A stretch of 64,000 nucleotides of DNA, from contig QPGO01000277.1 in assembly GCA_008632985.1 (NCBI GenBank), positions 1 to 64,000 on the forward strand. Reading direction: 5' to 3'. This document shows, in pieces, positions 1 through 40,913 of this stretch; positions within the stretch are counted from its first letter, which is position 1, and each line of letters opens with the position of its first letter. This DNA comes from Psammoneis japonica (Eukaryota). Made by a program: the position numbers and the translations under genes. The notes under the pieces are model-generated. The model saw only the letters and a list, made by a program, of their open reading frames with translations, ran no database searches and was not told where the DNA came from.

Positions 1-352
1 AGGCCTCCCAACTGGACTCTCCACGTCTCGTGCCTCGAGACCGGGCCTCCCAATTGGATCCTCCACGTCTCGTACCTCAAGACTCGGCCTCCAGATTGGA
101 TCCCTCAAGTCTTGCGCCACGAGACTCGGCCTCCTGATTGGATCCCCCAAGTCTCGCACCTCAAGACTTGGCCTCCTGATTGGATCCCCGAAGACTCGTG
201 TCACAAGACTGGCAAGTCCTTTTGGATTCCAGAAGTCTTGCAGCATGAGACTGGTTGCCCCAATCAGACATCTGCAGTCTTGCACCACAAGATGTCTCGC
301 TCCAATCCGATCCCCAAAGGCTTGCACCTTGAGACTCGTTTCTCCAATTGGA
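1..352. repeat. 42-bp degenerate tandem repeat (minisatellite), about 8 units, truncated by the window start
   Basis: Units such as gagaccgggcctcccaattggatcctccacgtctcgtacctc / aagactcggcctccagattggatccctcaagtcttgcgccac / gagactcggcctcctgattggatcccccaagtctcgcacctc; period 42 (14 codons), decaying rightwards. Confidence 0.85.
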
Positions 353-1599
353 TCAGTCTCTCAGGAGATGCAACTGAGCTTGCAATCGGATTGGGGGAAC
401 ACAAGACCACCGCTTGTGCCTTTGAACTCATGCTTGCTCTGTTCCCCGAGTCGTGCAAACGCCATGCCACCCTGCTCAAGCACTGCTCTGTTTTTCTAGC
501 AGCAGCCCAGTGTGGCAACCGTTCCAAGAACCAACAGACGGCTGTCAGTCTTTACGACCTTCGCTCAGGAAGTGAAGGCGATGTCAACTTGCCTGCATTG
601 TCCTGCGATGTTGCCCCACCGTTCAACATTGTCAACCAGACCAAGCTTTGCTCCTTCCATTGCAAGTGCGGATGTGGAATCCCACAAGATCCCAAGTGTG
701 CCTTGAGCTTTGAAAAGCACAACGGCATCTGCAATTGGGGAGATGCAGCTCATCTCAAGATGACCCACTTGGAGAATGCAGCGTTGCTCCAGGATCTTGA
801 TCCTTTTTTGTCTCCTCATGTTTTGGTGCTTTGACTCCAAAGTTCTTCAGTCAATCCAAAGTCGAATCTGTTTCTGTGACTCTTCAAGCAAACTGGGGAG
901 TGACAGGATTTGAACAGGATTTAGGTGCGCACGAAATGTCGCGCGCTGTTTAGTTTGCCGTGCACAGTTTTGTGTGCTTTAGTTCCGCGCGTTCGCGCGC
1001 GATGCAGTTTGCTTTCGAGCCACAAGGCTCACAAGAACAATGACAGTGGCCCGATCATACCGACTTACACGTCTTTCGGCTCCTGCAACGGTCTCTGAGC
1101 GGAGACTCATCTGCCACTTAGACAGCAGCAAGGAGTCATTGTTTGAATTCTTGCCATTTGCCTTCAATTTCTGTCACTCTTCTGCTCGGAAGAATGCATG
1201 TCCTCCTCGATTTTTGTACACCGGAACATGCAAAAGCATCTGCTGCAGCAACAACGGTTGTGAAGTGGAGTGCTTGAGTCATTTTGCTTGTTTGACAAAC
1301 GAAGCTTCAAGGAAGGCGTTGAGTGTTGATTGCTGCATGCCGGTTCCAGCACCACCGATGTGCAATGTGCAGCCAGAGTTCATTGCTCATCGGCCGGACC
1401 ACACCCACCCGGACCCGGGGAACGGACAAGCTGGCAAAAAATGAGGATGATGTCACTCACAGTGCTCGCAGAGCGAGCTGCTCTCCACTGGCTAGAGAGG
1501 GCCCCACTCTCTAGAGCAGAGAGCAGAGCAGAGAGAGAATGGTGGTGGCCACTCTCTGCTCCCTAGAGAGAGAGACTGCAGCTGCTGCAGTCTCCAGTG

Positions 1600-2900
1600 C
1601 GACAGTGCGCGAACATGTTGTGTTGTCTGCCTGCGGGTTGGGGCGTCGTCAACAAAATGTTTCAACTGTCATTTTCAGCGACAAGTTGTTGGCTGTTGAA
1701 CCCATCTTCACTGGGCTCATTCTCTCCCAGAGTCGAGTGGGTGAAAGGTTGCAAGCAGGGCCAAGTGGCTCTGGTGCCCCTGTGCTTTTCTGCCAAGCAC
1801 TCCTGTCAACACCCATGCTGGTCATTTGGCTGGCCAGCTCCTCCATCAGCACCGTTGCACTGTGTCCATTGTGTGACTCCCCTCCCTTGTTGCCAAGGAT
1901 GTCTCTCTTTGTTGGACAGTGCAGTTGTTGATGGGTTGAAGATTGCTGTGTCCATTGCACGTGGTGGCAACAGCTTGTCCTCTGCCAGACATGAGCACAT
2001 TTGGGAGCACAGCAATTGGTCAGAGTTTGTTGTGGGCTTGATGGACTGGGGTGTGTGCGCTCTGCAAGCAAGAGATGTGTGTCTGTGGTCACACTGGCTT
2101 GTGACTTGTTGTCAACAGACAAGACTGTTTGTTGGCATGGCCCAGCCAGCCTGTGCTTCTGTGTTTCTTATGAGCACCCAGTCAATGGAGAATGAACAGG
2201 GCTGTGCAGCCAAATGCTTGCATTACAAACCATGGCAAAGGCCATTTCTCCAGGGGCTTTGAAAATGTTGTGACAAGTTGGGACAATGCCTCCTCCTCTT
2301 CATGGCTTTTTTCCTGCATTTTGGAAGCATGGTTTCATGGGCTGATGAGTTGTCTGTGGAGCTGCCTGCAAGGAGTCTGAGAGAGACAGAGCCTGCATTC
2401 AAAGAACTGCAGAGAGTGTGCAGAGAACATCCAAGCTGTGGAGCATGCATCAGACTGCTCATTTGCATGAATCTAGCATCCTTTGGTGGTGCCAAGAAGG
2501 AAACAAGCCTGCCAAAAAGTGGGAACTTTCTCATCCGGAAATCTTGGTGGGGCCCATGGGATGACACAACCACAGGCCAAAGTTCACAGACATGATGGCA
2601 TTGAGTCTGAGAAATCTGCTGAGCAACAATGAAGCAGAGCTTGTGGCTGTGTGCAACAAGCTTCAAGAACATCAGGTCAAGGATCACAAGCAGAAGAGCA
2701 TCAATTGCACTCCACTGCCAAGGTCAGCAATTGGGTGGCCATGGTGTGGCCCTGTCTGAAAGAAAGTGTCAATGAGGCCAGAAGTGCCAAAATTCTGGCT
2801 GACCCTCATCCCAGTCCCTTCTGCCATGCTGGCTGTCAGTGCACTGGAGAAGTGTGGTGGGTCAGCATTTGCTGGCTTTTGCAGAAAAAAGTGCAGTGGT
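1600..2900. other. Unclassified TpA-depleted, probably repeat-derived sequence
   Basis: Only 3 TA dinucleotides seen in about 1.3 kb and contiguous with the copia relic; no protein motif recognised. Confidence 0.4.
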
Positions 2901-5900
2901 GCCCATGGACTGGACTTTTTTTGTGTCCTTGTTGTCAGCTTTGAATGCAGTCTGATTGTCAGGCCTGGCCCTCACCAGGGAGAGATGCAGCTGCTTGTGG
3001 TGGTGAAACATGCACAAGCTGGCCCACTTTGTTCTTGCTCAACAATGGCATCAAGGCATCAATGGCAAAACAGGCTTTTTTTGGCAGGGTGTGCTGTGAC
3101 ACCCCTGACATTGCCTGGAACCCAATGGCCAATGGTGCACTGAAGAACACAGCCCTTCTTTGTGAATTTGACCCTGCCATCCCCAGAGAAATCAGTGGTC
3201 ATTTGTGCAGCACTTTGCTCCAACATCCAGTGATGGGCACACTGTTTTCTGCCTGCACTTGTTGTTGAGGGCCATGGCAATGTCCAGTGGCACCCACCAT
3301 TTGATGTGAAATGGTTTCATTTCATCAGCAACATGCCACATTGTGGCACAGTGCTTGCCACATTGATGGTCTTGTTGACCATGCACCAATCATGTGGGTT
3401 CCTTGACTTGAGTCCTGGGTCTCACCTGCACAGGAATGAGGGCAGATTCATCCAGAGGAGAAGAGCTCCTTGGAGGATTCCATGTGTGGTCCCTTTTTCA
3501 GCTCCATGAACAACACAGGTTTTCCCTTCTCTCCATTGCCACACACTTGTGGCACTTCCTTGCATCAACCCAGTGGAGCAACTCAGCCATCTCACCCTTC
3601 AGTCTTGTGTGTGTCAACCAGCCCATGATGTCACTGTGCATGAATGCACCTTGCAAGTTGGTGCTCATTGCTTGGCATTGCTCCTGTGGATCAATTGCAG
3701 AAGACAGAAATGAGGTGTGGGATTGCTTCTGTCAGCGCAGAGATGTTTCCTCTTTGCTTTTGTGTGGTCGTTGTTTCTTCCTGTCAGTGCATCTCCTGCC
3801 CTTGATTGCGCTGTCTTGCCTCTGCTTGAGACACATGAAATGCCTTTGTGTGTTTTTCTTTTGCTCCCTTGTTGTGTCTTTGGCAAACACCAGCTGGACA
3901 ACATTGCAGAAGGATGGCTGCTTCATTTGCTTGACCACAGCATCAGCTCTGGCTCTGCCAAGCCAACATCCACTTGGCAAGGAAAAGTGCCCCCCATCGG
4001 GCCTTCAAAGTGTTGGATGATTGGGCGCAGCAGCCAGCCCAGCTCATGATTGCATCTGTGGCTGCAGCCCTTCTCCTTGCAAGCTTGAAGGTTGCACACC
4101 TGGCTCCTCTTTCCACATCAGCACCTGTGGTCTGCCAGTGCCACCATCATTGTCTTCCTCTTTGTCACAGTCACAACCAGAGTTGGGGCCACACTCCACT
4201 TGGAGGGCAGGTGCTTGGTCATCCCAGTTTGCCCCCATGACTTCAATTTTCATTGCTCATGTCTTTGGTCTGTCCCAACTGAGCTTGTCTGGGAATGAGT
4301 TCCAGCACCTGGTCTGAGTCAGTGCTGCCCACATCCGCTCCTGCATTTTCTGCTGGTTTGGTCTGTCACTCCCCACTCTGGCTTCTTGAGCAGCTTCTTC
4401 CACTCCAGTCATTGCACTGGGGCACAGAGTGTTTTCTGTTGAGGGGTCTTCCACTCTTGCTGTTGGCACCTCTCTCCAGCAAGTCTCCCACTCATGTGGT
4501 TGCCTTGGCTGTGGGTGACACATCTGCTCCACCAGCCAATGCATCAGATCTCCATTGGAAGCCATTGTTGGTGGGTGCACTCCTGTGACCCAAGTGTGTC
4601 TGGACAAGGGTTGGGTCTGAAATCAGCATCATCTGAGGGATCAGATGAGCAGCCACCATTGTCAAGGAGGAGTTGTCAGCAGAGTTGTCATTGTTGGGGT
4701 CACAGCTTGTGCTCTCATTGTGCACAGAGTTGGGGTGGTGGGGAAGTCAATGTCCACATCTGTCAGCAAAGGCAAGGGTTCAGCACATGTCTTGGCTGGC
4801 CCTGAGTTTGTCAACATGGTGAACAACATCAGACAGCATGGGCATGGCTGTCCAGTGGTTTTTGCAAATGACATCATGCTTGTTGCCAGTGGTGAGAAAA
4901 ATGAAATGGTGCCCCCCTTGTCCATTTCCTGCAAGTCTGAGGCAGACAGCACTGGTGGTTGTTGGGTGCACAGTGTTGTTGCACTCTTCATGGACCTGAG
5001 CACAGCTGCCAAACTCAAGGGTTGTGCATGTTTTTGACAGTCAATGTGCTGACCAGTGGTGACACAGCTCCCTGGTTGTGCTGCCAGGGTTCAGGAGCAG
5101 TGCATTGAGCCAGGAAGTGGAGCTGCAGACCAAATGAATGAGGATCATTTGCAAGGTTTGCTTGAAGGGAAGGGAGCTGAAGCCACTGTGCCTCCTGTCC
5201 TTGACTGTTCAGATGCGTTGCTCAACATCTGCCATGTGCACTCATCCTGTGAGTGTGCAGGTTGAATGCTGCATTTGGCATGAGGTCCTCAAGGGCCTGG
5301 AATTCTGGGTCAGCATGAATGGTTGCTGTCAGGGTTTGTCAGTGCCAACACCTGAGGACCATGTGACCTTCTTGAGCATGGCAGCTGCAGCACTGCCCCT
5401 GCTGTGTGGTGGCACATGCACTGAGCTTGCTGCTCTTGTTGCCACCACCACATCCTTTGGGCTTGTTGTGCTGCTCAATGTCCTGCACTTTGTCTGGCTC
5501 CTCTGTTGCACTGGTTGACAGCGACCCTTTCAGTTGTGAAGGCTGGCTCAGTTTTGTCACTGTGAGTGCCACCATTGTGGTGCTCAGGTGGCACACAGTT
5601 GAGGGTGCAGCTGCAGCAGGTTCCTCTGCAGACTTTGGGCCATTGTCCAAACCCCTTGAGCACTTGCTTCAATGTCTGCCACAAGGTTCCCACATCAATT
5701 GTGGTTGCTGTTGAGGAGGGGAAAACACCCCCAACAGATTGACTTTGTCCCCTCACAGATCAGTCACAAAATGGGAATCCCGGACTCAGCATGGGTTCCA
5801 TGTTGTTTGCAGGAAACTCCCCCCCCCCCCAGTGGCCAGAGCTGGCATTGGGCAAAAGATTTAAAAGTTCACTTCAGCTGCAGCATGCTGCATCAATCCT

Positions 5901-6047
5901 CTTGCTGTCTCTCCCACCAGCATTTAATTTGCTGTGTTGTGTTGTTTGCTTCATCATTGACTGTGTCAAGTGTGGGTGGTGATGAGGTTTCTGAGCCAGT
6001 GCTGAAGTGCAAGAGAATCAAAAATGTCTTTGAGCTTGACCCTTGGA

Positions 6048-8370
6048 TCAACCCTGATGCAGGCAAGAGTGTCTTCACTGACAATGAGTTGGACAGTGCA
6101 CTCTCCAAAATTGCACACAATGAGTGGTGTGGTGCATTCCCGCACAAGGAGACAAACTGTTTTGGAGATTCAAGAGGTGGGTGCCAAGGAAACTGAAGAT
6201 TGGACAACAACAAGTGGCACGTTGTCCATTTCAATGTCAAAGCAAGTGCAACTGCCATGTGGAGATTGTTCAAAACCATCCAAACAACAACCAAATTTCC
6301 AAAGGATTGGTGCCTCATGCTGACTGCAATGTGTCTTTCTACAAGAGCCAACTGGCAAAACAAGTCTTGCAAGTCTTTGGCTTGCCATGGCATGCTGAGT
6401 TGCATCTGAGTCAATTGCTTCAAAAGGCCTTGGACAGAATTTGAATCTTGACAAGGGTGCACAGAGGAAAGCCCAGAGGATGCTTTCAAAACAAGCCAAG
6501 CAAGTGTTGAGGTTGTGCCCCACCAACAGAGAGAGTGGAGTGGGGTGGGGATGCATTGTGGATGCCCTTGAGAGATGCAAGCATGACTCCATGAGTCCTG
6601 ACGCATTCAACAAGCACACAACATGGGTGCTTTTGTGGTGACAAGCATTTTTGTGACAGCAACGCAGAGCAACTGCGTTGTGCTTTTTCTGCAGAGAATC
6701 TGCTGCTGAAAAGATGTTGTCAACTTGCGCCAGGGCAGAATTTCTTTGCTGTCAACACATTGCACCCACAAAAAGGCTGGTTTAATGCCAATCAAGGTTG
6801 TCAGTTTTAAACGAGATGGCCACATTGTTGCATGTGGTGTTGCATCAAATGAAGATGAGGAAACATGCAAAATCATCTTTCAGAGCATCAAGAAGGCTGT
6901 GAAAGATGTTGTTGGTAGATGTGTTGCTTGTGGGGATCAGCATGCTTGGGATGCAGTGGAGAGAGCAAAGTGACAGTGGAATTTAAATGCTTGTCAACAC
7001 AATGCAACACAGTGCAATGCAGTGAAATGTGGTGCAACATGCTCTGGCCACCACCAGCTGGTTTACACTCAATTTTGCAATGAAATCATGAGTTGATCAT
7101 TTGATCTTTGCAAATTGATTGTAAAGAAAATGTTGTGCAATGCCATGCAATGCAGCACAACACATGCAATGCAACACAGAAACAGCTCATTGACTTGCAT
7201 TCAATTTTGCACTCCAATCACAAATCTTTCATTTGGGCTTCATGAGTCAATCATCAGGGCTCCTCCATGCTTTGCAGTCTTGGGACAACTGAAAAACTCA
7301 ATGTCATTTCTCAGTGCTTTGCCATGGCACATGAATGGCAGTGCTGTGCATGATGCTGGCAATCTTGCATGTGCCAGACATGAACCTGTGTTGATGCCTC
7401 ATTCCAAAAGCTCTTTTGTTGGCATTGCTTGCAGCCCTTTGTGTGTGAGCATTGTGTGAAGCTCTTTTGTTGTGACTCAAGTCATGTCATCTGATGGTTG
7501 GATCAACCTCACAATGTGGAATGTCTTGATTCAATCCACAGCCATTTCACAACTCATGTCACACTCAGTGATGGCTTTTTCAGGGTTCAGGAGCAGCGTC
7601 TTTGTCTTGTGTTGATGCAGCCATCAATTTGTTGCAAGGCCTTTTTTGCATGCATCAATGTCATCTGCATTGATGCCAAGGGCAACAAGGTCATTCTCAT
7701 GAAATGCTGCCCCCAACAATGTGTGGCCCTTGCAGCAGCAGCCATTCCAAGATGCCCATGGCCCTGTGGATTTGCTTCAAGGGTCACACATTGTTGGGGG
7801 CAGCACTGCATGAATGATCTTGTTGTTGACCTTGGTGTTGATGCAGACCAACCCCAATGCAGGCAAGAGTGTCTTCACTGACAATGAGTTGGGCAATGCA
7901 CTCTCCAAAATTGCACACAATGAGTGGTGGTGTGTTCCTGCACAAGGAGACAAAGTGTTTTGGAAGTTCAAGAGGGGTGGGATCCAAGGAAGCTGAAGGG
8001 TGGACAACAACAAGTGGCGTGTTGTCCATTTCAGTGTCAAAGCAAGAGCAACTGCCACATGGAGATTGTTCAAAACCATCCAAACAAGAATCAAATTTTC
8101 AAAGGATTGATGCCTCATGCTGACCACAATGTGTCTTCTTTCTACAATGGCCAACTGGCAAAACAAGTCTTGCAAGTCTTTGGCTTGCCATGGCATGCTC
8201 AGTTGTTGCATCTGAGTCAATTGTTTCAGAAGGGCCTTGGACAGAATCTGAATCTTGACAAAGGTGCACAGAGAAAAGCCCAGAGGATGCTTTCAAAACA
8301 AGCCAAGCAAGTGTTGAGGTTGCACCTCACCAACAGAGAGAGTGGAGTGGGGTGGGGATGCATTGTGGAC
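6048..8370 (+). repeat. Diverged direct duplication of about 510 bp (~6048-6560 and ~7850-8370)
   Basis: Both copies read atgcaggcaagagtgtcttcactgacaatgagttgg ... gagagtggagtggggtggggatgcattgtgga, with matching translations. Confidence 0.9.
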
Positions 8371-8822
8371 AACAGGAAAACTCAATGTCATTTCTCAGTG
8401 CTTTGCCATGTGGCACATGAATGGCAGTGCCGTGCATGATGCTGGCAATCTTGCATGTGCAAGACAAGAGACCTGTGTTGATGCCTCATTTTCCAACAGC
8501 TCTTCTGTTGGCGCATTGCTTGCAGCCCATTGTGTGCAAGCATTGTGTGAAGCTCTTTTGTTGTGACTCAAGTCATGTCATCTGATGAAGGGATCAGCCT
8601 CACAATGTGGAATGTTTTGATCAAATCCACAGCCATTTCACAACTCATGTTGAACCCAGTGATGGCATTTTTGGGGTTCTGGAGCAGTGTCTTGTGTTGG
8701 TGCAGCCGTCAATTTGTTGCAAGATGTTTTTTGCACACATCAAGAATGTCACCTGCATCAATGCCAAGGTCAACAAGATCATTCATGCAGTGCTGCCCCC
8801 AACAATGTGCGACCCTTGCAGT
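7290..8822 (+). repeat. Second diverged direct duplication (~7290-7738 and ~8375-8822), with an inverted partial third copy at ~7738-7846
   Basis: Shared aaaactcaatgtcatttctcagtgctttgccatg...gtgactcaagtcatgtcatctgatg...tgctgcccccaacaatgtg; 7738-7846 is the reverse complement of ~8750-8860. Confidence 0.85.
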
Positions 8823-9879
8823 GCATCCACAGGGCCACGGGCATCTTGGAATGGCTGCTGAAAAGAAAAAAGCGGCCCTCTTGTCAAATTGATGTGGAGT
8901 GAAATTTCATTGGTGGTTTTGCCAGCTGAAGCAGTTGAAAAAAAACCCAGAAAACAGAGTCCTAAAATGAGGAGTTGGTGCCTGTTGAGGAGGGGCACAC
9001 CCGAGCACTTGTTCTGGATGGTGGTCTCTGCCTTGGCCTGTTCTTTTGCCAATGGGGCATCAGCACCCACATCTGACTCTTGCAGAAAGGCACTGACCTG
9101 CTTGGGGTGCATGCCAATCTGGCCTGTCATGCACTCCATGATGCCCATGAGTTCTCTTGCATTGTCACAGCAATCCGCACTGGACATGTGGAGGGTTTGA
9201 TGGAAGGTGAGTGGCGCATGTTCAGTGTCAATGATCATGTGCATGGGGGGAGGGACTTCTCCTGGTCTGCTTCTGCATCATGCAGTTTTGGATCAGCTCA
9301 AGTCAGCCAATGATGCTGGCATTGCCGTTGACATCTCTCCAGTCGCTCCTTGTGTGCTTCCATCCAGTTTCTGAGAGGTCAGGTGCTGGACAAGTGTTGG
9401 GGTGAAGACTCCACCCAAAACTTGTGATGTGATTGGCCTTGCTGGACGTAGGAACTAGTGCTGTTGATCTCCAAGAGCATCGAAAAATGACCCTCTTTGG
9501 ATGGTTTAGCTGCTAAATATTTGCTCATTCATGACAAAGATGCAATTTGTGTTCAACGATGTGTCTTGTAGACATTATTTTGAAACGAAGCATTGCTATC
9601 AAAACTACGAAGAGCCGTCTGTCTAGAGCACGGAAGAGCTCGTTGGTTTGAGCCGACAGATTCTTTGCTTCCCTCGTCTCCTGAAACGCACTGCAATGAA
9701 TTCTCCGAGACACCCAGTATCGCATGAAAGAGACTAGAGGGTTCCTTTCCATCGTGGTTCTCGTGCGAGCGCCAAGACGATTGATCGTTCACAGTTTCAC
9801 ACAAGACGTTGCAGGTGTCATGATTATCAGTGTGCATGAATGGACGAATATGGTGTTCATCACGATGAAAACATCTGAA

Positions 9880-11196: not shown

Positions 11197-11431
11197 CGCG
11201 ACGAGCAAACCGAAGGGAGGGCACTGAATGAATTTGGTGCTTGACGCAATTTTTGGAATTTCATGATATCTTCATTCGTATATACCTCATATTTGTATGT
11301 ATTGTTCAAGCATGGATGTTAATTATTTTTATACTGTCTTCTTTTTCTCGCGTCGTACGTACGTCGTGCAACGTGCAAAAAAAAATTTTCTTCGATGCAC
11401 ATAGCATTGCGCAGAGCACGACACCATCACC

Positions 11432-14424: not shown

Positions 14425-14613
14425 AAGCTTTCATCCAACAATGCCAGCGAGAACAATGCACATTGCTATTACACGAAAATTCCATCTTGGTGTCGTCTTG
14501 CCACTTCCAATCTAAGCTTTCGCCCAGCAGCGTCTAAGAACATACATTTAGTATTATACCTTTGCCAAGTAATAAGTTAGTTGTTTATGTCTTCAAACCA
14601 TAGCTACAGTATT

Positions 14614-26415: not shown

Positions 26416-26609
26416 AAGAGGATAAAGTACGGTTGCTTGTGTTGATAGAGAGAACTGCGGGTTGTTGATTCTCGTACCGTAGCTAAACAGAGCTCTGGAG
26501 AGATTCACGTTTAAAAAGTAACTATGTAATTTATTGTATTGCACCCACGGCGTCAAAGCTCTGCAAGCACCGGTTGAGATAGAGATGAGGGGAGCAACTA
26601 GCAGAGAAA

Positions 26610-28357: not shown

Positions 28358-28432
28358 GTTTTATTTGAATTGTATATATTATAGGCAAGTCAAAGGCACT
28401 ACAACGACAAAAAGAGACGATCGGCGAGGTAG

Positions 28433-29503
28433 GTGCCGACAGCAACAACACAAGTTGAACTCGAACGAAAAAAAAAATACCGAAGGAGTGTGCGGTGTGG
28501 CGATGAGATGATGAGATTCACGTTGCGCTCAGTACATTTCCTACGCAGCTTCTACGCAGCATCGCCAGGTCACCCGGCTGTGTTCTGTGCCTGGGTGCGT
28601 CATGACGAAAAGTTCAACTTGCACAAACACGAACCAATTGGTGGCGTTTTGATTCCGTCGACTGAGCTGATTCTGTTGCGAACACCTTCTTTACGTAAAC
28701 ACCGTATGAGATTTACATACGAAGTCAATACCAAGATCCGACGCCACGTGCAAACTAAGTATTGGATGTACATGACCACTGTTGAACCAGATCCAGACAC
28801 AACGCCGAAGTTCGGCCAAGTGGCGCGTGTGGCTGCGCGATGGACGAGTCGTGTCGCCTTTTCTGCTTTGGGATAGAATTCGAGCGCCGCATGGCAGCCT
28901 GCGTTGAAGACAAGAACATGCCCCCCCACTGCTCTGCGATGCACCCTCCCACCAGTTCCTGCAGCCGTGCATGAAGAAGGTGCCTTCCAGGCATCAAAGG
29001 ACAGACAGGAGGAGAGCATTGATGAGCATGGCAGCCAGCAAGCACCAGCGGGGGACTTTTTTGGCGCGCAAAGTTGGCTGTTTTCACAAAACAAAAAGAG
29101 CCCCTCTGTGCCATGCTCTCCCACTGCCCTGCTTTGTGCTGGTTTAAAGAGCAGAAGAAAGGAGAAAGACAAGGCAGCAAGCTTCAGCCATGACACTCTT
29201 GTGGAGCTGCAGCAGTGCCTCGCCTGCACCCTCGTCCACGCTGCCTCTGCAGCAACAAAGCTTTTCTCTTTGCACCACACCACCAGGGGCGCTTTTCTTG
29301 CATTGGCTGTTGTGAACAACTCCTGTGCACTGACAGAAAGCACACCTTGTGGAAAAATCCAAAAAAAACAGCAGCACTTGGTGTGGCTGGCACTGGCAGT
29401 GCTTGGAAAAGAAACGCCCCTTTTCACTTTCCCCAGACATCAGTCTGGAAGGCTCAGGTCCAAAAGGAGAAGAGGTGCAGCAAGAAGTGGGCAACTCAGA
29501 TGA
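28433..29503 (+). pseudogene. Unknown ORF interrupted by one TAG (28874-28876); 3' half is TpA-depleted
   Basis: ORFs 28433-28876 and 28904-29503 are in the same frame; Tyr is present before the stop and absent after it. Confidence 0.4.
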
Positions 29504-29935
29504 TGATGTTGTGCCAGCAGCACGGATGTCAAGCTGCCGCAAAAGCAGCGCCCCTTTCTCTCCAAGAAAAAAAGAAAGCTCTGTGTGGGTGCCCCCCCCT
29601 GCTTGTGCCTGCAAGATGCAAAAATGTTAACCACCGCAGTTGTCCGTGACAACATCAGCAGTTCTTGGATGTTGGATTTTGGAATTTGGAAGCTGTGCTG
29701 CGCAAGAGCACAGGCAAGAGAGCCCGGGGTGAGCGAGATTGGCCATGATGCTCTGTTTCTGCAGAGCTGGTGGACATTTTAATTCAGAGAGTTGCAGTTT
29801 ATGTTGCAGCACAGTTGTTGCATTTTGCGTTTTGCTTCATGTAAATGACTTGCTCAGCTTGAAATTGATCTCCGTTGATGACATTGAATGAACAATGATT
29901 GCATGCATGTGAAAACCAGGTTTCCGTTGGAGTGC
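28880..29935. other. Isolated TpA-depleted domain of about 1 kb, probably repeat-derived
   Basis: Only a handful of TA remain (tttaaa, gttaac, tttaat, tttatg, tgtaaa), against normal TA frequency on both sides. Confidence 0.7.
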
Positions 29936-30250
29936 AACAGACTCTAGAAGTGTAAAAATGATCGCACTACTGTACGCGCAACTTCGGGAGGGCTGCGATT
30001 GACCTGCCCTCATGTCTGAATATCTTTATGAAATGCACCGCTGCTGCCAACGAACAACGAGCAGAGACGACAATGACCGAGTCCGCCGTCCACCGCCGTA
30101 GTTTGCTGCCTGACTACGTCGCCCATTGCACCGATATCAACCTCTCCTTGCTGTAGTCACTCTCTGTAACTTACGACGGGAATCTGAATCAATCGCTCTT
30201 TGATCTTGTCGCAATCAGATCTGTATTCTTTTCTGAATCACGTGAACAAC

Positions 30251-31553
30251 ATGTCATCTCCAAAAACAGCTCAACCGACAGCAGCAGCAGTAGCAGCAGA
30301 AGCAGCCCCATGGTCCACCGATCCGTCGGATTATCATCTAATTCGCAAGATTGGTCGCGGTGCTTTTGCATCTGTATGGAAAGCCATCCTTCCAAAGATG
30401 AAAACAAAGAATGCGCCGTGAAGGTGTTGAATCTCGACAATTGGGATACCAACTTGGCTGAGATTCGACAAGAAGTTCAAGCCATGCGACTGTCGGCTCA
30501 TGAAAACGTGTTGCAGTGTCATACAGCCTTTTGCAACAACACAGACTTGTGGTTGGTGACGCCACTTATGCGCAAGGGTAGTTCGTTGCACTGTCTGTCG
30601 AGTGCGAGACGGATCAAGCCGGAAATCAAGTTGGAACAACATATACTGTACATTATGCACGAGACGCTCTTGGGATTGCAGTATATTCATTCGCAGGGCC
30701 AGCTGCATCGAGACGTAAAAGCTGGCAACGTACTTGTGGATGCCAATGCCGACGTCCGTATTGCTGACTTTGGAGTTTCGGGTTGGTTGGTGGAGGGAGG
30801 TTCCCAACAGGAAAAAGCAAAGACCTTTGTTGGAACGCCCTGTTGGATGGCACCCGAAGTGATGGAACAAGTGCACGGTTATGACTACAAGGCGGATCTG
30901 TGGAGTTTGGGAATCACCGCCTTGGAACTGGCCAAGGGTACGCACCCTACGCAAAGTATCCGCCCATGAAAGTGTTGATTCTGACAATACAAGAAGATCC
31001 GCCGACACTGGATACATACGATGATGACGATGATGACGAGTTTGTAGAAGAAGATTGGTCCAAGACCTTTCGTGCACTCGTGGCAGTCTTGCTTCAAAAG
31101 GATCCAGCCAGACGACCGACTTGTCAAGAGTTGCTGTCGAGCAAGTACTTTGCTGGCCTGAATCGCAACGAGCGACGAAACGCCATCAAGACGGAGGTGT
31201 GTGACATTGTTGAGGATATTGGGAGTGGTGAATCCGAGCGCTTTGCGGCCCCGGACGCCATTGTCACGTGTGAAGACCGACCGGCGGGTACCACGTGGGT
31301 GTTTGCCGATGGATCGCAAGTGTTGGCTTCCGAACAGACCGCCAGCGAAGTGGATGATGTCATTGATGAGTTGGATCAATTTGGAAAACAAACGGGTGGC
31401 GAGAACTATCAACGAGATTTGGAAGAGGAAAACAGAAAAACAGTCAAGCACGCGACAGTGCAGAGGGAAGAAGAAGAGCCGGATGATTTAGAGGAGTTTA
31501 TGGATGAATTTGAAATGACAACCGGCGGAGAAAACTTTAGAAAACCGTCATGA
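30251..31553 (+). CDS. STE20-family Ser/Thr kinase (OSR1/SPAK-like); two apparent frameshifts
   Basis: IGRGAFASVWKA, CAVKVL, HRDVKAGN, IADFGVS, TFVGTPCWMAPEV, GYAPYAKYPPMKVL. Confidence 0.92.
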
Positions 31554-31998
31554 TAGATACTGACAGAAAAAGATATTGATCTGTGTTGGTTCAAGACTAC
31601 AGTAAACTAGAGACATTCCCTCATAAGCAACGCTTACACAAACATGGAGACGGAACAGGCTGTATTCTGCGCAAAGTGCCCCAAAGAAGGTTTGGAACCT
31701 TTCGCAAGTCTCTCCCTCATGTACAATGAAACATTATAAGGCGATCGTAAGCGTGCCTAACCCTACCAGCCACTGAACGTCCCAAACAACAAGCACACTC
31801 ACTTCTACTATATCAACGTAGGTACTTCATTTCGAGCACACCGCAAGGAGTTCTCTATAGACTAGCACCAAAATGAAAAAGTAGAACCGACACAGTTCAT
31901 TAACTGCATCACGGTCCTTTCTATTCTATAGAGAGGATTGTTTTTCAATTGATTATGTTATCTTCTTGATCGGCAAGGTATCTGGACAAACTACAATC

Positions 31999-32430
31999 CT
32001 ATCCGCTCGTTGGATTCTTCTTGCTCTTCTTATGGAGTGGTTGTTCCCGGGTGCTGTTACTGCCGGGTAGCGAATGAATATGATGACGACGACGTCGACG
32101 CCTAGAAGAGTCGCTTACTGCAGCTCCCTGCCCATCATATTGAATGCCGGAATTGATGGGAACCAAAAAGGACCAAACGTGCTTCATGACGGCGAGTGGA
32201 ATGTTGGCGCTCAAAGACAATTTATCCAAGATCATGCGCTGCGTATCCACTAGTTGCATCAGATCGGCAAATTTCCGAAGCACAAGGTAGTAGATCGTTG
32301 GCACAGCACCGCGGCTCAAGTCCAAAGGGGTCTCGTTGTGTTCATTCTTGACCACAAGAGTAAAAGGGTCTGCCTCGATCAGTGCGTCAATGACCTCGAC
32401 TGTATTCGTGAGATCTTGGCCTCCAGAAAA
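31999..32430 (-). pseudogene. 3' portion of an ankyrin-like-repeat gene whose 5' end runs into the transposon cluster
   Basis: VEVIDALIEADPFTLVVKNEHNETPLDLS resembles an ankyrin-type repeat; the upstream in-frame sequence is TpA-depleted and not gene-like. Confidence 0.5.
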
Positions 32431-33414
32431 TGAGCTCCCTGCCCATTGTTGCCATTGCTGTGGTTGTTGCAGAACAGAGTGCGTCTTTTGAAAGAGAGAA
32501 AAACAGGAGCTCTTCCTCTGAGCAGGGAGAGGCCAAAAGGAAGAAGAAAAAACCAAGAGGACAGTGGAGCACGCGGGACCCCGTTTTCCGTCACCGTGCT
32601 TTTTGTGTGACAAAAAAATCTCATCCGAGCTCGTGCTTTCCCCCAATTTTTCGCATCTTCTTTCATCAGATCTGCTCATTTTCATGGACCGGCTGCCTTC
32701 TTTGTTCATTGAGGGTGTGGACAAAAAGAGAAAGCTCTTTCAGAGTCAATTTTTTGGTCTAAAAATGACAGGAAACCGTGCGCGGCAGTTTTCCGAACGA
32801 CTTTGAGTCACTGTTTCTCTGCTTCTTTCATCCGATTTGACTGTTTTGAAAGGATGTCCACATTCTCTGTTGTGCAAAGAGCTCACAGCAAAAAAAGAAT
32901 GGCACTCTAACTCCATTTTTTGCATGTGAAAAATCGGGGGAACTGACTTCACACGCACCCTGATTGTCACAGAAAATCTGTGTCGATTTGAAAATTGGGG
33001 GTTGCATGAAAAATCAAAATTTTCATTTTCCCCTGTTTTTCACGTGTTTTCAAACATTTTGACTGAAGAAAAGTCGTCGTGTCGAGAAAGGGGGGCACAA
33101 CCAATGTCGGTCGTCCATCATCTCGAGCATGCACTGGATGGCACCACGTGAGTGCGAGTCAGAGAGGGGGCAGCCAAATGTCGCCTTGTGACGTGCGCAT
33201 CAGAAGCTCACTGCTCGTGCCCCTGGCTTGAAGACGTCAGTGCTCTCGTCTCAATCGGTCTCGCTCATCATTCGACCCACCAACGAGCTGACGTGCTGGG
33301 TGGGAGACATCATTGTTGTCATCACGTCTGGCGATTCAGCAGCAGCCTCAGTCATTGTAACTTTTGATGCTGAGACCAAGCTGCTGCACAAAGTTTTGCT
33401 GTTTTACTTGTGCA

Positions 33415-34460
33415 TCACGAAACCCAACGAAAATTTGTTTCAGACAAGACAAACCGGCTCTCTTGCAGCCACGACTGAAGAAATGTCACAACAAATGTTG
33501 CAAAATGTCCCAACTTCTCAATGGGTTCCCATTCATCCAAGCACTCTGCTTCAAAGGGTGTGCATCCCATCACAATGGAAAGCTGTGTGATGTTCGCCAC
33601 TGTTTGGAAGACAAGGTGATGCGTTGATCGATCATGACGATGTGCTCTTGTCATCATTTGGAAGCGCTTGAACCAACCGTTGACAGCTTCGTGGCGGGCA
33701 CGAGCGGTGGTCTTCATGCATTGGTCGGCATTGCGCAGGCCGGTCGGGGCCACACAGTGCTGGTGTCCGTCACTGTGTGCCCCATCAGCTGAGCAAAACT
33801 CTCCATCTTGAAGTTCACAATTGATCGCCTCTCGTGCTGTGCTCAAATCAGGAATGCCAGCTGGGTGGGGGGCATTCACCCAAACTGTCCAACCTGTCAA
33901 AATGCGTGTGGCGATTTCGCACCCAAGCCCTGCGCCATTGAATTTGTGCGAATGCCAGATGGGGTCGAACGGCGATGGTTCATTGATGCGACAGTCAGTG
34001 CCGTCCACCGTCACCTTGCATGCGCTGCCATTGTCATCCACAAACCTGTTCTCCCAATCAATCTGTGATGAAATTGTGGTGAATCAAATGTCAGTGCATT
34101 GATTTTCAAAGAGAAATTGGAGTCATGGTGCGCACCAAGTTCAAATTCGCAATTGGCGCCATCCCAACCCACACCCATTTTCTCAACACATCCTCGTGCA
34201 TGCCACCGCAGATTCTGGCCATTGTGGTTTCAGCGTCACACAGTTTCAGAAAACAAAGTGTGTGCAACAAATGAGTGGGCAGAAATCCGCGTGGGATGCA
34301 GCCATCATCTTCAAGAAGGCCCCACAACTCACACACTGCGTCTCGCGGAGAGCAGAAGTGTGAGGCAAATCTGCGGTTCCAAATCCGTTGTGACCTCATC
34401 GGCCTCTGGATGACTGTCCCCACAAGACAATCTGCTGTGGCTTTGGGCAGGCGCATTTGC
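33415..34460 (-). pseudogene. Harbinger DDE transposase (intron 34135-34063); frame open but Tyr-free
   Basis: HLLHTLCFLKLCD, RKWVW, IDWENRF, VTVDGTDCRINEP, WHSHKFNG, VWVNAPHPAG, ADGAHSD, RARHEAVNGWFKRF, VANITQL. Confidence 0.9.
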
Positions 34461-35353
34461 ATGGTGAGCAACACAGACGTGTGTTGCGCGCACGATGTTC
34501 CATGTTGTGTGCTAAAAAGATTGCTGCTGCGCCAGTTCCGTGCAGCAGTGTTTTTGTTGCCGCAGGTGGATTGATGGCCGGGTGGGGTTCTCATTCATTT
34601 CCAACGTCTGACAACAAGGTTTTGATGTCAGGCCTTTTAGTGAGACTCCCTTCGAGAACGCTTTTGGTGCGGTCCCGGAACGGTGGAAACACGGGAATGA
34701 TGAATGCCTGTTTCGTCGAATGGCATTTCCGTGTTGGAGCTGTTGGCGGTTGCTGCAGATGTGGTTTAGCGCCAAACAATGCTGGCAGTTACAATGAACC
34801 CTCACAGCTCAACTCACAGCCACTGTAAATCAAAATCATTGAGACTTCCAACAGTCGTTCTTTTTCTTAGAGAAAATGGAAACCTGTTTTGATGGGTGTG
34901 CCTTTTTGCAACAAATCCATCTAATCTGCCAAACTTTTACACTGTTGTGCCATGCTCAAATGGTTCTGACAATGGCGCACTGGCTGCAATGCATCACATG
35001 TCTCATCGGCAGATTGAGAGGCTCCAAAGTTTGATTTCTGCGCGAATCAGTGCAATCGAGAACATTCTCGGAACGGTTTTGGAACACTTTTGGAACGGCA
35101 CGCAAGGGAATCTTGAGCTCCAATGCTTCACAACAGTCCCCCCCGACAGGCCTTTTTTTGGTTTTGGCGGTTGCAGTGGTTTCAAATTTGCCGGGACTTG
35201 CATGTGTGGGGTTGACCATCCCACACAAAGAGAGAGTTGAGACGGTCATGAACAACTCAAATTGGAGTTCGGGATTCGATGCGAACCTTGCCACAGTGTG
35301 GCAAGCAACACGGCATTCAGAGGATTTGCAGCTTGCCTCGTCATAAAATTGAG

Positions 35354-36420
35354 AATGGTGACCAACACACACACTGTGGTGCAAATGAACACAAGGAGCA
35401 AGTCAGTGCTTGGCACTGACTTGAAGCCGCCTCCCGCCTTTTGAAAAAACTTGCCCGACTGGACACTGCTCAGGGATCTCCTGTTGCAAAAAAGGGTCAA
35501 TCCTGGAGCGTCACCAAAGGAGGTTCAGTCCATGCGTGCAGAGTTTTTGAAGCATCCTCTTGCCAAATTTGCACTCAGCTGTGCAAGCTGAGGAAAGAAA
35601 CTGGTTTCAACCTGTGTCAACGAAGCGCTGATGACAGCACTGCACCACCGGCAGATGACGGCACTGGTGGAAGTGAGTGTCGCCACATGCTGCACTTTGT
35701 CAAATGAAACAGAATGCACTCTCATGTTGCTCTTTTTTTCTCTTGACTGTTGTCCACTGTTTCAAAAGGGGAAGACCTCAACATGGACAAGGACAAGCTC
35801 TCAGCCGACATCGGCCTGTCGTCAGCCAAGGAAACCGGCAGTTTTGCAGCTGTCGCCCCCACTGCTTTGGACCCCCCAGCATTTGAGGACGACCAGACAT
35901 TCAAGCCCATGGTTTTGCAGGCGACCTGCAAGGATTCTGTCAACAAGACAGACCATGTGGTGCTGGTGATTGTAGCTCCCTCAGGAGCATGCACTGAGGA
36001 CCTTTCTAGCTTCAAGCTCACGGTGACGGGTGGCGGTTGGTTTTTACAGTGCACCTCCGAGTGGCCGGGTCACAGCATGGACATGGACTCACTCCATGCT
36101 GTGCTGGTGGAGGAGGCACAATCCAAGGAGACCAAGAGCTCAGGGATGTGTGCAAGCGCCTGAGGCACTTTCGGATCAGTTGTCCTCCATGAGGTTGTCA
36201 GACAGCGATGTTTTGGCATCAACAGCCACTGTTTCCTTTGCCCATCAAAGTGTCGAAAAAGATTGACAAGGTTCATCTTTTGGGGGGTGAGGATGGTTCA
36301 AGAATTGTGTGTGTTGACCTCAAAGCTGAGGACTCAACATGCCGCTCTGTGGAGAGCCCCAAGGTCATGTTGATTGATGGCACCACTTGCATGGAGAAGC
36401 AGGGTGCGCGGCGTTTCTTT
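35354..36420 (+). pseudogene. Harbinger accessory (second) ORF, degenerate
   Basis: Lies within the TIRs, divergent from the transposase; MNTRSK...LRDLL...PKEVQSMRAEFLKHPLAKF, then a probable intron from gtgagt (~35673) and DHVVLVIVAPSG; contains stops and frameshifts. Confidence 0.55.
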
Positions 36421-37935
36421 TCATTTTACACTGTTTTGGTTTTCACAGCAGCAACAAGGACAAGTGTGGCGGCTGTCATTGGAAATGCCAGCAGTTTAGA
36501 ACATCAGTTTAATTGCATCATTCTTACTTCTTAGCACAGCAGTGTCTTTACGTCTTAGTTTCAATCCACAAAACATCGTTGACAACAACACCGCGTAGCC
36601 TCCGCTGTTGGCTACATCGATGCGAGCACGGGCTGCCACCTCGGCACCGCAGTCGGCAGCATCGGCTATCGGCATGCGTGCTGTTCGCACGATCCTGAAA
36701 ATGCGAGAAAAACAGGGGAAAATGAAAATTTCGATTTTTCACGCAACTCCCTGTGAGATTGTTTTGGGGTCCGAACAAATTCTGCGAAGTCATTGCAACG
36801 GAAAATCTGGAATCTGGACCCCACACAAATGCATGCAGGGTGTGTGCAGACCATGCCGGGCCCACTTTTACCATGCCGGGCCAACAGAAGGGTTCTTCAA
36901 AGACGCACTGGTTTGGCCAATTTTGGCAAAAACCAACCCCAGTTTTAGCCGAACACAATTGAAAATCTGTGCTTTTCAAAAATCTGCAACTGTTTCTGTG
37001 GACCCCTTGAAAATCTGCAAGAAATCTGAGCCCCAAATCTGTGCCACAGATTTTCCATGACAATCACGGTGCATTTTTTGCGTGATCCGCTGTTTCAAAG
37101 ATCAGCTGATTTGTCGACCTGTGTGGGAGTCTTGAGTCAGTCACATGCCAGCAGCAAAATTTCAGCATCAAAGTTGGGTGAATGTGGAGCAATTGAGTCA
37201 TTTGACGAGCAGAAGCAGAGGCAACAATGAAATGTTGACAGCACTTCAATGCCCAATTGACTGGCCCCACCTCAGAATGAAGCAAAATGGCTGCAAAACA
37301 CAGATGTCACTAAAAGCGTTGTTCTGTTTTGCAACATCGCAGCTGCCAGATTCGTCCAGTGGCTTCTCAACCCCCATGCACCCTCACAACTGAGTGCAGA
37401 ATCATTCTTTTGTTGGCGCCAATGTTTGATGCTTGTGTGCGACCCAAAAGCACAGTCCATGCCAACACTCAAAGTGCACTCAACCCATCATAAAAAGCAC
37501 ACTGACACACCACAATGACGTGTGATGTTGCTTGCATCAAGCATCAATTCAACAGAGCCTTGCATTTTGAACAACACTGCACTGCAATCTGAGGATGAGC
37601 AAAAGAGGCATCAAAAATGTCGTGAGACGAAAGGCTGTCCAGAAGACACAACAAACGGCAAACATCAAAATTTCAGCCACATCATTGCATTGAGCTTAGT
37701 CTCATTGACCCATTTTGCCATTCTTGTCTTCTTTGACATTGCGGATGTTGGTGTGAGGATGGTTGAGTTCATGGCGGTGGCATGGGGCCATTTTTGATGT
37801 GCACAATTTGTGGATGAGACATGAAAAAAAGACAGCATCGCACGGGAGCTCAAAAATTGCACGCGACTGTGGTGCAAAAAGTGCGTGCCACAGAGAAATG
37901 CACAGAAAACCTCGCGCATTGTCCCCGAGTGACCC

Positions 37936-40184
37936 CAGGGACACAAATGTCCAGTCAGATGGGATGTGACACGTGGCACAAAAAAATGGGCCCTTTGCGT
38001 TGATTTTAAGGTTTGTCCACATGTTCGTGCACAAACAAAATTTCAATGTTCAAAATTGACATGGGCAATCCCTTTGATGGGCCAAAAGTGAGGGAAACTG
38101 AGTCTCAACGCACACGCACAGCTCACACTGACATGATGCCACATTGCCATCATTCTGCTGTTTTCTCCTTCGTGATTCCACTGTTGCTCTCCCTTGTGGT
38201 CACATGCCGATGCACTCACTTCTCCATTGGCTTGTCATGAGCAAATGCATTTTGCAAATGCCATTGTGCTCCTCTTGCTCTTCCATTTTGTTGCTTCTTG
38301 TGGTGTGTGAGCATTTTCTGAATGCCTCTCATGTTGCTGCATTGCATTGCATTGGATGCATCAAATTTTGCCATGCCCCTCATTGCATGTGTGCGTCTTC
38401 CTTTTTCTCTTTTCAGCTGCTCATTGAAACTTGTGCACAAGAAACTCATGTGAAAGCGACCAAATCGACAACGCAACTCGGTTCCTCCAGAAATGCCACA
38501 TCATGAAAAAGCAAATCCGAGCGACTTTCAGCATCCATCGCAGGAGTGGCGTGCATGACATGCACCAGCACTGAAGCAAGAGGGTGCACATCTGGTGTCT
38601 CTTTCATTTGTTGCTGCACCCCACAATGCGCCCCCAATTTTTTGGCTCTGTTTCTTCTCCTCAGGCTTGGTTTCCTGCATCTGTGGCAAACAGCAGTTCC
38701 CGTCTGCTGGCACTTAGATTGGCGGGGTTCTTGACATGTTTTGCATCTGGCATCTCTTTGTTGCAGTGCCCCATCCAATGCAATTCTAAATTTTAATTCC
38801 GTTTCTTCACCTTGGGTTTTGCATCCACGGCCTTCACCTTTTCCTTCAGCTCTTGCCAAAAAGCTGTCAAGCTTTCTTTCTTGCCTCCATGCTGGAAGTT
38901 GAGGGATCGATGCCGCTTGAGAGCAAAGGCAACACAAGCATGAAATGTCTTCAGCACTGCCTCTTTCAGCAGTGGAGTGGCGACACTGTCATCATTTTGT
39001 TTGGCAAGTGTTTGAAATGCAGCCAGCCAGTTTGGCATTTTCGACAGAGCACATTCTTGTGCAATCTTTGCTGCTTCATTTCCTTTTTCTGATGTTTTCT
39101 TTTCATCAACATTCACGGCAACTTCATGGACAATCTCACGTGCAAGCACAACACAAGAGTTGGGTGCATCAAAGCAAGTCACCCTTTGTTGAAGAAGTGA
39201 TCTTCCACTCAGCAGCATCTTTCCAAATGCACACAGTTGCTCACAATGTCTGCTTCCATTGCGCTCATCATGCAATTCAGCATCCTCCACCTTTCCTTGT
39301 CATGAGCACAGGCAGCATTGTCCTTGTCATCATCAGAGAGCTTTGACATTGAGCTGAACAGAGCCCCTCCCACAAAGCGGCAGCTGGGTGTTTGGCGGCA
39401 GTGGCACAACGGAGCTCTCAAATTCTGGAGAAGAGAGCCTCGACATCAGACTGATTGGGGTGCAGTGCTGGCATGAACTTGGGTCCATTGTGAAGATTCA
39501 AAACTGCTCTTGCGTGGGAAAAGAACAAAGTGCAATTCCAACATTGCAGGCTCTGCCATTTCATGTCATTCTTGCTGCACTGGAGGTTGTTTCAAGCTGC
39601 TTTGCACTCGTGAGCTGAGCAGCTCCACACTGGGTTGGGCACACTTTCCTCATCACCATTGTCTTTGTCATCCCGCAGCTTCTTGGAATCAGCTGCTGGT
39701 GCAGAGCACTTTTGGCTGAACGTTCAGCAGCCCACCCAGGTGCACTTTGTTTGTGTCTTCTCTGGAATCAATGCCATCCGCTTCTCCCACCAACACAAGG
39801 GGAGTTTGTGCATCACACTTTCTGTCCAAATTTTGCCTTGCTCTTCAAGGACGCTCTTGAACAGACTTGGCAGTTCTCCGCAGATGCAGGTTAAATGATC
39901 AGACACCATGGTTGATGCAGTTGGTCGGGCAAGAAGTGAGCTTGTCTTTTCTCTTGCACGATGTCCACTTGTGTTGGTGCTGTGTCAAAGCGTGTTGTTT
40001 GATTTTTTGTTTTCCCTCACTTTTGGCCTGTCAAAGGGATTGCCTGTGTCAATTTTTAACACTTGATTTTTGTTTGTGTGCCCATGTTGGACAAACCCTG
40101 AAATCAATGAGAAAGGCACAAGACCCCCCTGCAGCCGCCACGTGGGCATGTCACATCCCATCTGACTGGACATTTGTGTCCCTG
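37936..40184 (-). mobile_element. DNA transposon with ~165-bp imperfect TIRs and an 8-bp TSD (P-element- or hAT-like), degenerate
   Basis: Termini cagggacacaaatgtccagtcagatgggatgtgaca / tgtcacatcccatctgactggacatttgtgtccctg; flanks agtgaccc (37928-37935) and agtgagcc (40185-40192); internal minus-strand motif NQSDVEALFSRI* (~39460-39418). Confidence 0.85.
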
Positions 40185-40913
40185 AGTGAGCCACCTGGGT
40201 TGAAAACACATCCAAAACCTGTGCGCAAAACAAAAAGTTCCTTCTTCCCCATGGTGGCACACACACACGAAAAAAGATTGAAGAAAAAGTCATTTTTGCA
40301 TTTTTGCAGCCAATCTCTGGTCTTTTTGAGCCACTGGACACAAGTCAAGCTGTTGTTTGCTGTCCCTTTTACCAAGTTGGTCAGGCTTTGGCTTTGGGGG
40401 TTTCCATCCTCCATTGGCAGGGGGGGGGAACTGCCGAGGCAGCAACGCGAAGCTTCTCAACACACACCCGCAGAAGCGCGCTGCCCACAATGACAGCCAG
40501 AAGGTTCAACCCCTTTCAAAAACACACAGAAGTGGCTCTCACATTGTCGCTTTTGCTTGTCTAAACCTGCACCGGAATGAGGTGCTATCTTGGCTGTCAT
40601 TTTGCTCGTCGTGCAAAATCTTCTTTGGACTCTCGACTTGTTTGAGTTTCGAGGGAAAACTGTTAAAAATCCATGTTTTTGTCTTTCTTCTTTTTTCAAT
40701 GTATTTCGTGAAAATGAAAAGGAACACGCTACTCCCATTTTTTGAGACATCGATTCCTCTTTCAGAGCATTGTCACGTGTCAATTATGAAGAAACATCAA
40801 ACTTGAAGGAATCTCTCTTTTATTTCTTTTTTGCGGTGTGCGTGTGCCGATGAAACGTGCAACAACCGACGGGTCTGGCAGAACACACCAACAACACAAA
40901 ATCGTTCAACACC

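Follow-up and report, generated by a model that had tools for sequence, protein, structure and literature searches.

A 64,000-bp stretch of DNA from Psammoneis japonica (contig QPGO01000277.1 of assembly GCA_008632985.1, positions 1 to 64,000; the whole of this stretch is hereafter called the window) contains three domains from which the dinucleotide TA has almost disappeared. These domains are probably relics of transposons or other foreign DNA that have been hypermutated by the host genome at the DNA level, through A:T>G:C transitions specific to TpA, on top of a more ordinary decay of CpG. The signature itself, its direction, its specificity for TpA, its confinement to the three domains, and its presence in elements both with and without an RNA intermediate are all observed in the window. 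The domains are the following:

Positions 1..9449, no strand assigned: TA-depleted domain 1, a mosaic of degenerate elements (TA 27 observed, 341.6 expected at the flank rate).
Positions 28875..29944, no strand assigned: TA-depleted domain 2, an island of 1 kb (TA 5 observed, 38.2 expected; CG observed/expected ratio (o/e) 0.36).
Positions 32404..40561, no strand assigned: TA-depleted domain 3, made of highly repeated elements (TA 38 observed, 294.8 expected; CG o/e 0.54).

Counted in 500-bp bins, TA o/e is 0.00-0.17 over 1-9500, 0.04 in 29001-29500 and 0.00-0.30 over 32501-40500, whereas the flanking bins mostly lie at 0.3-1.1. The TA count is zero in every bin from 2501 to 5500. A preliminary description of this DNA, made from the letters alone, had proposed three sharply bounded TA-poor domains and had found no TA by eye between about 2475 and about 5860; both statements agree with the counts, as the longest run without TA extends from 2474 to 5862 (3,388 bp). 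If TA occurred at the flank rate of 0.036 per base, a run of this length would have a probability of approximately exp(-122). Closely spaced TA ends or restarts at 9449, 28874, 29945, 32403 and 40562, near the limits first proposed, and the edges are sharp to tens of bases. Domain 2 is flanked by genes for a glutamyl-tRNA reductase and a kinase.

Depletion is limited to TA and CG, and enrichment to CA and TG; the other 12 of the 16 dinucleotides stay near their flank values in domains 1 and 3. In the flanks, the o/e values of TA, CG, CA and TG are 0.54, 1.01, 1.17 and 1.15, respectively. The corresponding values are 0.05, 0.18, 1.90 and 1.76 in domain 1; 0.03, 0.06 (26 copies of CG), 2.02 and 1.83 in the interval 2000-9000; and 0.07, 0.54, 1.71 and 1.57 in domain 3. 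Across the domains, TA ranges over 0.03-0.08 and CA/TG over 1.5-2.0, with a G+C content of ~50%, compared with 48% in the flanks. The share of all steps taken by TA, CG, CA and TG together, summed from the dinucleotide counts, is nearly the same in the flanks (24.0%), in 2000-9000 (24.6%) and in domain 3 (24.1%). This constant pyrimidine-purine sum matches the mass balance predicted if TA and CG were turned into TG and CA by transitions. Since half of the CpG is left in domain 3 and TA o/e is nevertheless 0.07, TA loss is separate from, and faster than, CpG decay. It had been claimed at the outset that neither fungal repeat-induced point mutation (RIP) nor CpG decay alone explains the loss of TA, and the dinucleotide counts uphold this; the accompanying loss of CpG, on the other hand, had been understated (o/e 0.06 in 2000-9000, 0.36 in domain 2 and 0.54 in domain 3). 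Because CpG is lost as well, part of the excess of Cys, His, Trp and Gln encoded in the domains stems from Arg CGN codons rather than from Tyr.

Three remnants of transposable elements were recognized within the domains:

Positions 2379..5238, minus strand: remnant of a copia-like polyprotein (integrase, reverse transcriptase and part of RNase H), frame-shifted, with in-frame TGA stops and without Tyr.
Positions 33532..34041, minus strand: DDE domain of a PIF/Harbinger transposase (PF13359 in its homologues), without Tyr.
Positions 6773..6994, plus strand: possible fragment of a MULE transposase with the motifs VACGV and EETCK (PF10551, E-value 0.044, 14.6 bits, below the cut-off of 27.6; a weak match).

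When 2379-3941 (minus strand) of the copia-like remnant is translated with X at nine TGA stops (P0001), a full HMMER search returns 277 protein matches at E<=0.001, whereas a word-based search with the copia-like fragment returns a single protein. A copia-like polyprotein of 1,667 aa (P0002) aligns in three frames to 5238-3068 (minus strand) as three tblastn segments with 28.6-30.5% identity. For the Harbinger element, the open reading frame (ORF) 33415-34083 (minus strand) has 46 homologues, many of which carry PF13359, and the best is 64% identical. The MULE match was obtained in a small read-through scan in which one of the three reference sequences was in the wrong frame. All six peptide motifs that the preliminary description had quoted, in which Cys or His replaces a family Tyr, are present, at 4903-5013 (minus), 6827-6871 (plus) and 33940-34258 (minus). 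Its claim that unrelated elements are affected is thus sound for the copia-like retrotransposon and the Harbinger DNA transposon, and weak for the MULE-like fragment. In addition, a tandem repeat of ~84 bp lies at 2-348 within domain 1 (86-348 matches 2-264 at 71%), and its translation repeats a unit of 28 residues.

ORFs of at least 80 aa are numerous in these regions, with 59 overlapping 1-10000 and 73 overlapping 28500-41000; they overlap one another and fill all six frames, because TAA and TAG are gone. When the 81 stop-to-stop ORFs of the domains were compared with Pfam, no transposon family was matched, and the only two matches were at chance level (LLC1 and D27-like_C).

The direction of change can be read from relatives of the two better-preserved elements. 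The 151 copia-like homologues contain 3.0% Tyr, 1.6% Cys and 2.7% His, compared with 0, 5.6 and 6.7% in the window copy. A column was considered conserved when the window codon was aligned to at least 5 homologues and at least 60% of them agreed. By this measure the copia-like element has 232 conserved columns. None of the 10 conserved Tyr columns is kept, as 6 have become His (all CAY), 2 Cys (both TGY) and 2 Phe; in comparison, 131 of 222 non-Tyr columns are kept (Lys 13/15, Trp 5/6, His 5/6; Fisher p 2e-4 vs Tyr). None of the 3 conserved Tyr columns of the Harbinger element retains Tyr (Cys in 2, His in 1), and ACA stands in two Ile columns. Pooled over both elements, all 13 conserved Tyr have been replaced, by His in 7 columns, Cys in 4 and Phe in 2. 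In the Harbinger alignment, the window also has Cys and His in the two columns that are occupied by Tyr in at least 90% of 25 sequences.

The same direction is found at the level of DNA. Eighty metagenomic relatives of the Harbinger element, which were retrieved via conserved peptides, a route that favours intact copies, have a median TA o/e of 0.66 (range 0.12-0.99). The closest of these (L001) has 20 TA in its aligned part when codons are threaded on the protein alignment, and at these steps the window has CA 10 times, TG 6, TC 3, TT once and TA never. Over the six closest loci, which share window positions so that their counts are not independent, 64 of 98 TA correspond to TG or CA in the window and none is kept, while ~12% of steps other than pyrimidine-purine steps correspond to TG or CA, and other steps are identical in 24-49%. 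The relatives are therefore not equally free of TA and Tyr, a possibility that the preliminary description had named as fatal to its own proposal. Its claim of a TpA-specific change from TA to TG or CA is likewise borne out, by the Tyr columns, the threading of L001 codons and the dinucleotide balance.

The same footprint is present among relatives from other public data sets. Two columns of the Harbinger relatives are nearly always Tyr; the first departs from it in 10 of 80 sequences (His 5, Cys 4, Trp 1) and the second in 8 of 78 (His 6, Cys 1, stop 1), so that 16 of the 18 exceptions are His or Cys. The relative L044 has a TA o/e of 0.12 and no Tyr in 168 aligned residues, and L057 has 2 Tyr, 11 Cys and 9 His. 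Among the 149 copia-like homologues that are at least 100 aa long, 9 have less than 1% Tyr together with raised Cys+His, and one of these 9 is 572 aa long; among the Harbinger homologues, 1 of 46 has less than 1% Tyr. The proteins P0003 (572 aa) and P0168 (123 aa) have no Tyr at all. The presence of this footprint in metagenomic relatives suggests that the process may be common in environmental algae.

Further information on timing and strand comes from duplications inside the domains:

Positions 6046-6562 with 7846-8369, 7283-7735 with 8367-8821, and the inverted pair 7736-7846 with 8753-8860, no strand assigned: internal duplications of domain 1, 87-90% identical.

These pairs contain 5, 5 and 2 adjacent double differences of the TG<->CA type, respectively. 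With a duplicated pair of ~76% identity in domain 3, the four pairs together show TG against CA in 16 of 41 adjacent double differences. Such swaps fit two copies in which one ancestral palindromic step (TA or CG) was resolved on different strands, and they imply that part of the mutation came after the copies were in place. A stretch of 184 bp at the junction of the domain 1 duplications (7664-7847) matches its own reverse complement at 73%. TG and CA follow one another in random order along the domains (z -0.7 to +0.4), without long single-strand tracts, and the ratios of TG to CA (1158:1002 in domain 1, 812:851 in domain 3) indicate that both strands are affected.

The TA steps that survive are not a random sample. 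The base preceding the 70 surviving TA, counted on both strands, is T in 67 of 140 cases vs 701 of 3,252 in the flanks, and A in 6 of 140 vs 848 of 3,252 (p about 1e-11 each). Expressed as domain over flank, TA survival is 0.01-0.02 for ATA/TAT, 0.04-0.08 for GTA/TAC, 0.05-0.16 for CTA/TAG and 0.14-0.30 for TTA/TAA. This bias could reflect either a mutator with an extended preference or new TA that arises preferentially in T-rich contexts.

Independently assembled contigs of a public run reproduce parts of the window without a single difference: 28678-30099 (1,422 bp, including all of domain 2), 38797-39467 (671 bp) and 31966-32905 (940 bp), the last of which spans the left edge of domain 3. 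Contig depth in domain 3 is 255-2295 in most bins (105-113 in two bins) and ~56 in the flanks. This repeat depth rises at 32.3-32.7 kb and falls at 40.2-40.6 kb, and thus coincides with the TA edges; TA spacing and contig depth together show that TA loss stops where the elements end. With all contexts pooled, the contigs show 755 transitions in 968 places. In the unique DNA of 30100-31800, 14-23 differences between contigs and window occur per 1.5-2.4 kb, and at 30100-30220 two contig versions stand side by side at similar depth, which suggests allelic or strain variation of ~0.6-1.5%. The window has one N, at 14187, and is otherwise complete.

A process that would account for these features can be outlined as follows. 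The A:T pairs of the palindromic TpA step would be changed to G:C on one strand or the other at random, which yields TpG or CpA, until hardly any TA is left, while a slower, ordinary CpG>TpG/CpA decay would act on the same DNA. The process would halt at element edges and spare adjacent genes. As a consequence, Tyr codons and the codons ATA, TTA, CTA and GTA would be removed, TAA and TAG would be converted to TGA or to sense codons, and TATA-like and AATAAA-like signals would be destroyed. In line with the proposal made for Bigelowiella natans, the most likely agent would be a TadA/ADAT-like enzyme with a preference for a 5' T, which would convert adenine in DNA to hypoxanthine (read as G); this enzymatic step is held with a confidence that falls somewhat short of even. 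Candidate deaminases include ADAT2/3 paralogues as well as two stramenopile clades, deaminase-SAM-Tudor and Rossmann-fused (PMC3239186). The process may serve as a genome defence.

The closest parallel is found in Bigelowiella natans. The text of a recent preprint describes mutation-accumulation lines in which two integrated viral regions mutate ~1000-fold faster than the remaining genome, at a rate of ~6e-7 per site per generation (Mettrop et al., bioRxiv 10.64898/2026.01.13.699255). Of the 231 single-nucleotide mutations in these regions, 230 are A>G or T>C, without exception at TpA; TpA is partly depleted there, with a Rho of 0.45 in the region derived from a nucleocytoplasmic large DNA virus (NCLDV) (10.64898/2026.01.13.699255). 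The B. natans genome contains 124 clusters poor in TpA and rich in CpA+TpG, and in a first screen coding sequences with low TpA were enriched in reverse-transcriptase and DDE-endonuclease domains (10.64898/2026.01.13.699255). ADAT2-like adenine deamination was proposed as the underlying defence (10.64898/2026.01.13.699255). The NCLDV and virophage DNA of B. natans and the domains of the window are alike in that TpA changes to TpG or CpA on both strands, in foreign or selfish DNA only, and within local boundaries. They differ in that the process was measured de novo and in viruses in B. natans, whereas the window holds a historical footprint in transposons that is near saturation (o/e 0.03-0.08). 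Furthermore, TpA loss is coupled with CpG decay in the window, while the term "CpG" is absent from the main text of the preprint. By analogy, the window would reflect the same process as that seen de novo in B. natans. Neither "diatom" nor "stramenopile" occurs in the main text of the preprint (10.64898/2026.01.13.699255), and a full-text literature search found no description of TpA hypermutation for diatoms, nor did passages of two diatom epigenome papers contain one. The remark in the preliminary description that no such process is described in diatoms therefore holds as far as this search extends, with the qualification that the same hypermutation has been described in B. natans.

Other mutational systems resemble the window in part. 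Fungal RIP is also dinucleotide-specific, restricted to transitions, confined to repeats and sharply ended, and it inactivates transposons. Its direction is the opposite one, as RIP turns CpA/TpG into TpA, produces AT-rich DNA and creates many new stops, whereas in the window TpA becomes CpA/TpG and TAA and TAG are removed. With TA o/e at 0.03-0.08, CA/TG o/e at 1.5-2.0 and G+C at ~50%, RIP was rejected. Deamination of 5-methylcytosine at CpG does resemble what has taken place in the same domains (CG o/e 0.06-0.54), and passages of one study describe diatom methylation as lying mainly at CpG (PMC5124317). As a sole cause it was rejected, since it cannot remove TpA and since TA loss is far more complete than CpG loss in domain 3. 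The hyper-editing by ADAR and the action of APOBEC3 in animals are similar in that a deaminase drives transition hypermutation of selfish nucleic acids and favours particular neighbouring bases. They differ because ADAR acts on RNA and APOBEC on cytosines, whereas the window has an affected DNA transposon, no depletion of TC or CC, and no strand-coordinated tracts. APOBEC-type C>T change at TC was rejected on the same dinucleotide counts.

Among the processes that could act on the DNA itself, the foremost competitor starts from thymine. The T of TpA in silenced DNA would be modified or damaged, for instance as 5-hydroxymethyluracil formed by a TET/JBP-type enzyme or as a UV thymine-adenine photoadduct, and mispairing or error-prone repair in compact chromatin would then lead to T>C. 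All of the counts given above fit T>C equally well, TpA being palindromic, and the accompanying loss of CpG suggests chemically modified, silenced chromatin. In dinoflagellates, 5-hydroxymethyluracil reportedly takes the place of thymine with a preference for TpA and TpC. It pairs well with adenine, however; TC, with an o/e of 0.99 and 1.04 in the domains vs 1.15 in the flanks, counts as not depleted, and the sole 2OG-Fe(II) oxygenase ORF in the window matches PF13640 rather than the TET/JBP family. The thymine route is thus considered unlikely. The preliminary description had offered, besides DNA adenine deamination, error-prone repair synthesis by a Y-family polymerase of the polymerase eta type, recruited to methylated repeats. 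Polymerase eta makes T:A>C:G errors at WA (where W is A or T), and the domains look methylated, judging by their CpG decay. This cause fits poorly, since AA is also a WA site and is not depleted (o/e 1.20 and 1.33 in the domains vs 1.15 in the flanks), AG is not clearly enriched (1.10 and 0.94 vs 0.96), and the near-total loss of one dinucleotide exceeds any known polymerase bias; a polymerase origin is accordingly rated as very unlikely.

A-to-I editing of double-stranded transposon RNA by an ADAR-like or ADAT-like enzyme, fixed by reverse transcription, would agree with the retrotransposon in domain 1 and with the 5' U preference that the preprint text gives as typical of RNA adenosine deaminases (10.64898/2026.01.13.699255). 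It is highly improbable, because the Harbinger DNA transposon has the same signature, as do the weak MULE-like fragment, non-coding parts and the 1-kb domain 2. Moreover, strand outcomes are randomly interleaved without strand-coordinated tracts, and duplicates within the locus diverged by TG<->CA swaps once they were in place. It could also be argued that sequencing or assembly misreads a modified base that sits at TpA in silenced DNA, particularly as all run contigs derive from a single sample, possibly the assembly's own, and as the platform is unrecorded. Strand-specific misreading, however, predicts all-TG and all-CA versions rather than one fixed random mixture, and independently assembled contigs agree over three stretches with 0 differences. 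The elements also bear frameshifts, in-frame stops and many other substitutions, and Tyr-free relatives rich in Cys and His occur in other public data sets (L044 and the 9 of 149 copia-like homologues), so that an artefact is extremely improbable. Finally, a native composition, in which the element families or a foreign donor simply avoid TA, would find some encouragement in the moderate TA poverty of the flanking host DNA (o/e 0.54). It is scarcely credible given relatives whose TA (median o/e 0.66) and Tyr (3.0 and 3.8%) are both normal, the occurrence of the one-step products His and Cys in conserved Tyr columns, and the broken state of the copies.

Several points nevertheless weigh against hypermutation of the domains by the host at TpA. 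The evidence is a footprint in sequence, as opposed to de novo events, an enzyme, inosine or chromatin measurements, and the palindromic nature of TpA makes A>G and T>C chemistry indistinguishable from such a footprint. Composition and edges were analysed over one 64-kb window. The contigs that confirm the sequence are of weak independence, as they come from a single sample that is possibly the assembly's own source. Domain 2 is at single-copy depth (35-44), which means that repetition may not be the trigger. Domain 1 has a slight excess of TG over CA on the plus strand (1158 vs 1002, p 8e-4).

The genes that flank the domains are those of a photosynthetic eukaryote and include glutamyl-tRNA reductase, photolyase, ribosomal protein L4, GH38 mannosidase and Nup85, with uninterrupted ORFs of up to 1,036 aa in the window. 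In the glutamyl-tRNA reductase gene (27011-28498, minus strand), the first exon encodes MRFGAAVLSAVLVLGTTAAFAPS and is followed by an intron with stops and then by the catalytic exon. We take this N-terminus to be an ASAFAP-type plastid signal, as used with the red-algal-origin plastids of diatoms and their kin. Such a signal is not expected in a chlorarachniophyte, and chlorarachniophyte genes are intron-rich. With its ASAFAP-like plastid signal and long intron-free ORFs, the host of the window therefore appears to differ from B. natans, and we infer, on this general knowledge of the two groups, that it is diatom-like and of a distinct lineage. A search with the ORF at 59282-61120, aimed at the host lineage, returned no match. 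Separately, two 75-bp tandem units of 97% identity lie at 61328-61476, at the start of an ORF for a CoA-transferase of family III.

A practical consequence concerns annotation. The loss of TAA and TAG creates long spurious ORFs that gene callers would report as proteins, while the proteins actually encoded by the domains escape Pfam (0 real matches in 81 ORFs), so that both repeat and gene annotation are misled.

To our knowledge, no natural process that removes TpA via A:T>G:C transitions was known before the 2026 preprint. The report on B. natans rests on one chlorarachniophyte, and the signature reported there is seen in the window at its end state, in transposons of what resembles a diatom-type alga; the window apparently adds a second, distant and far more tractable algal lineage for a process described only in 2026. 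As diatoms are ecologically dominant and genetically tractable, the enzyme, the recognition of its targets and its relation to cytosine methylation become testable. A natural DNA adenine deaminase, if true, would be of interest to base editing. More speculatively, TpA-directed adenine deamination of DNA may be an old and widespread eukaryotic defence, common at least to Rhizaria (Bigelowiella) and to stramenopile algae such as diatoms, in which a natural DNA adenine deaminase with an extended preference would act alongside cytosine methylation to erase transposons and integrated viruses. The process may therefore represent a widespread way to disable invading DNA.

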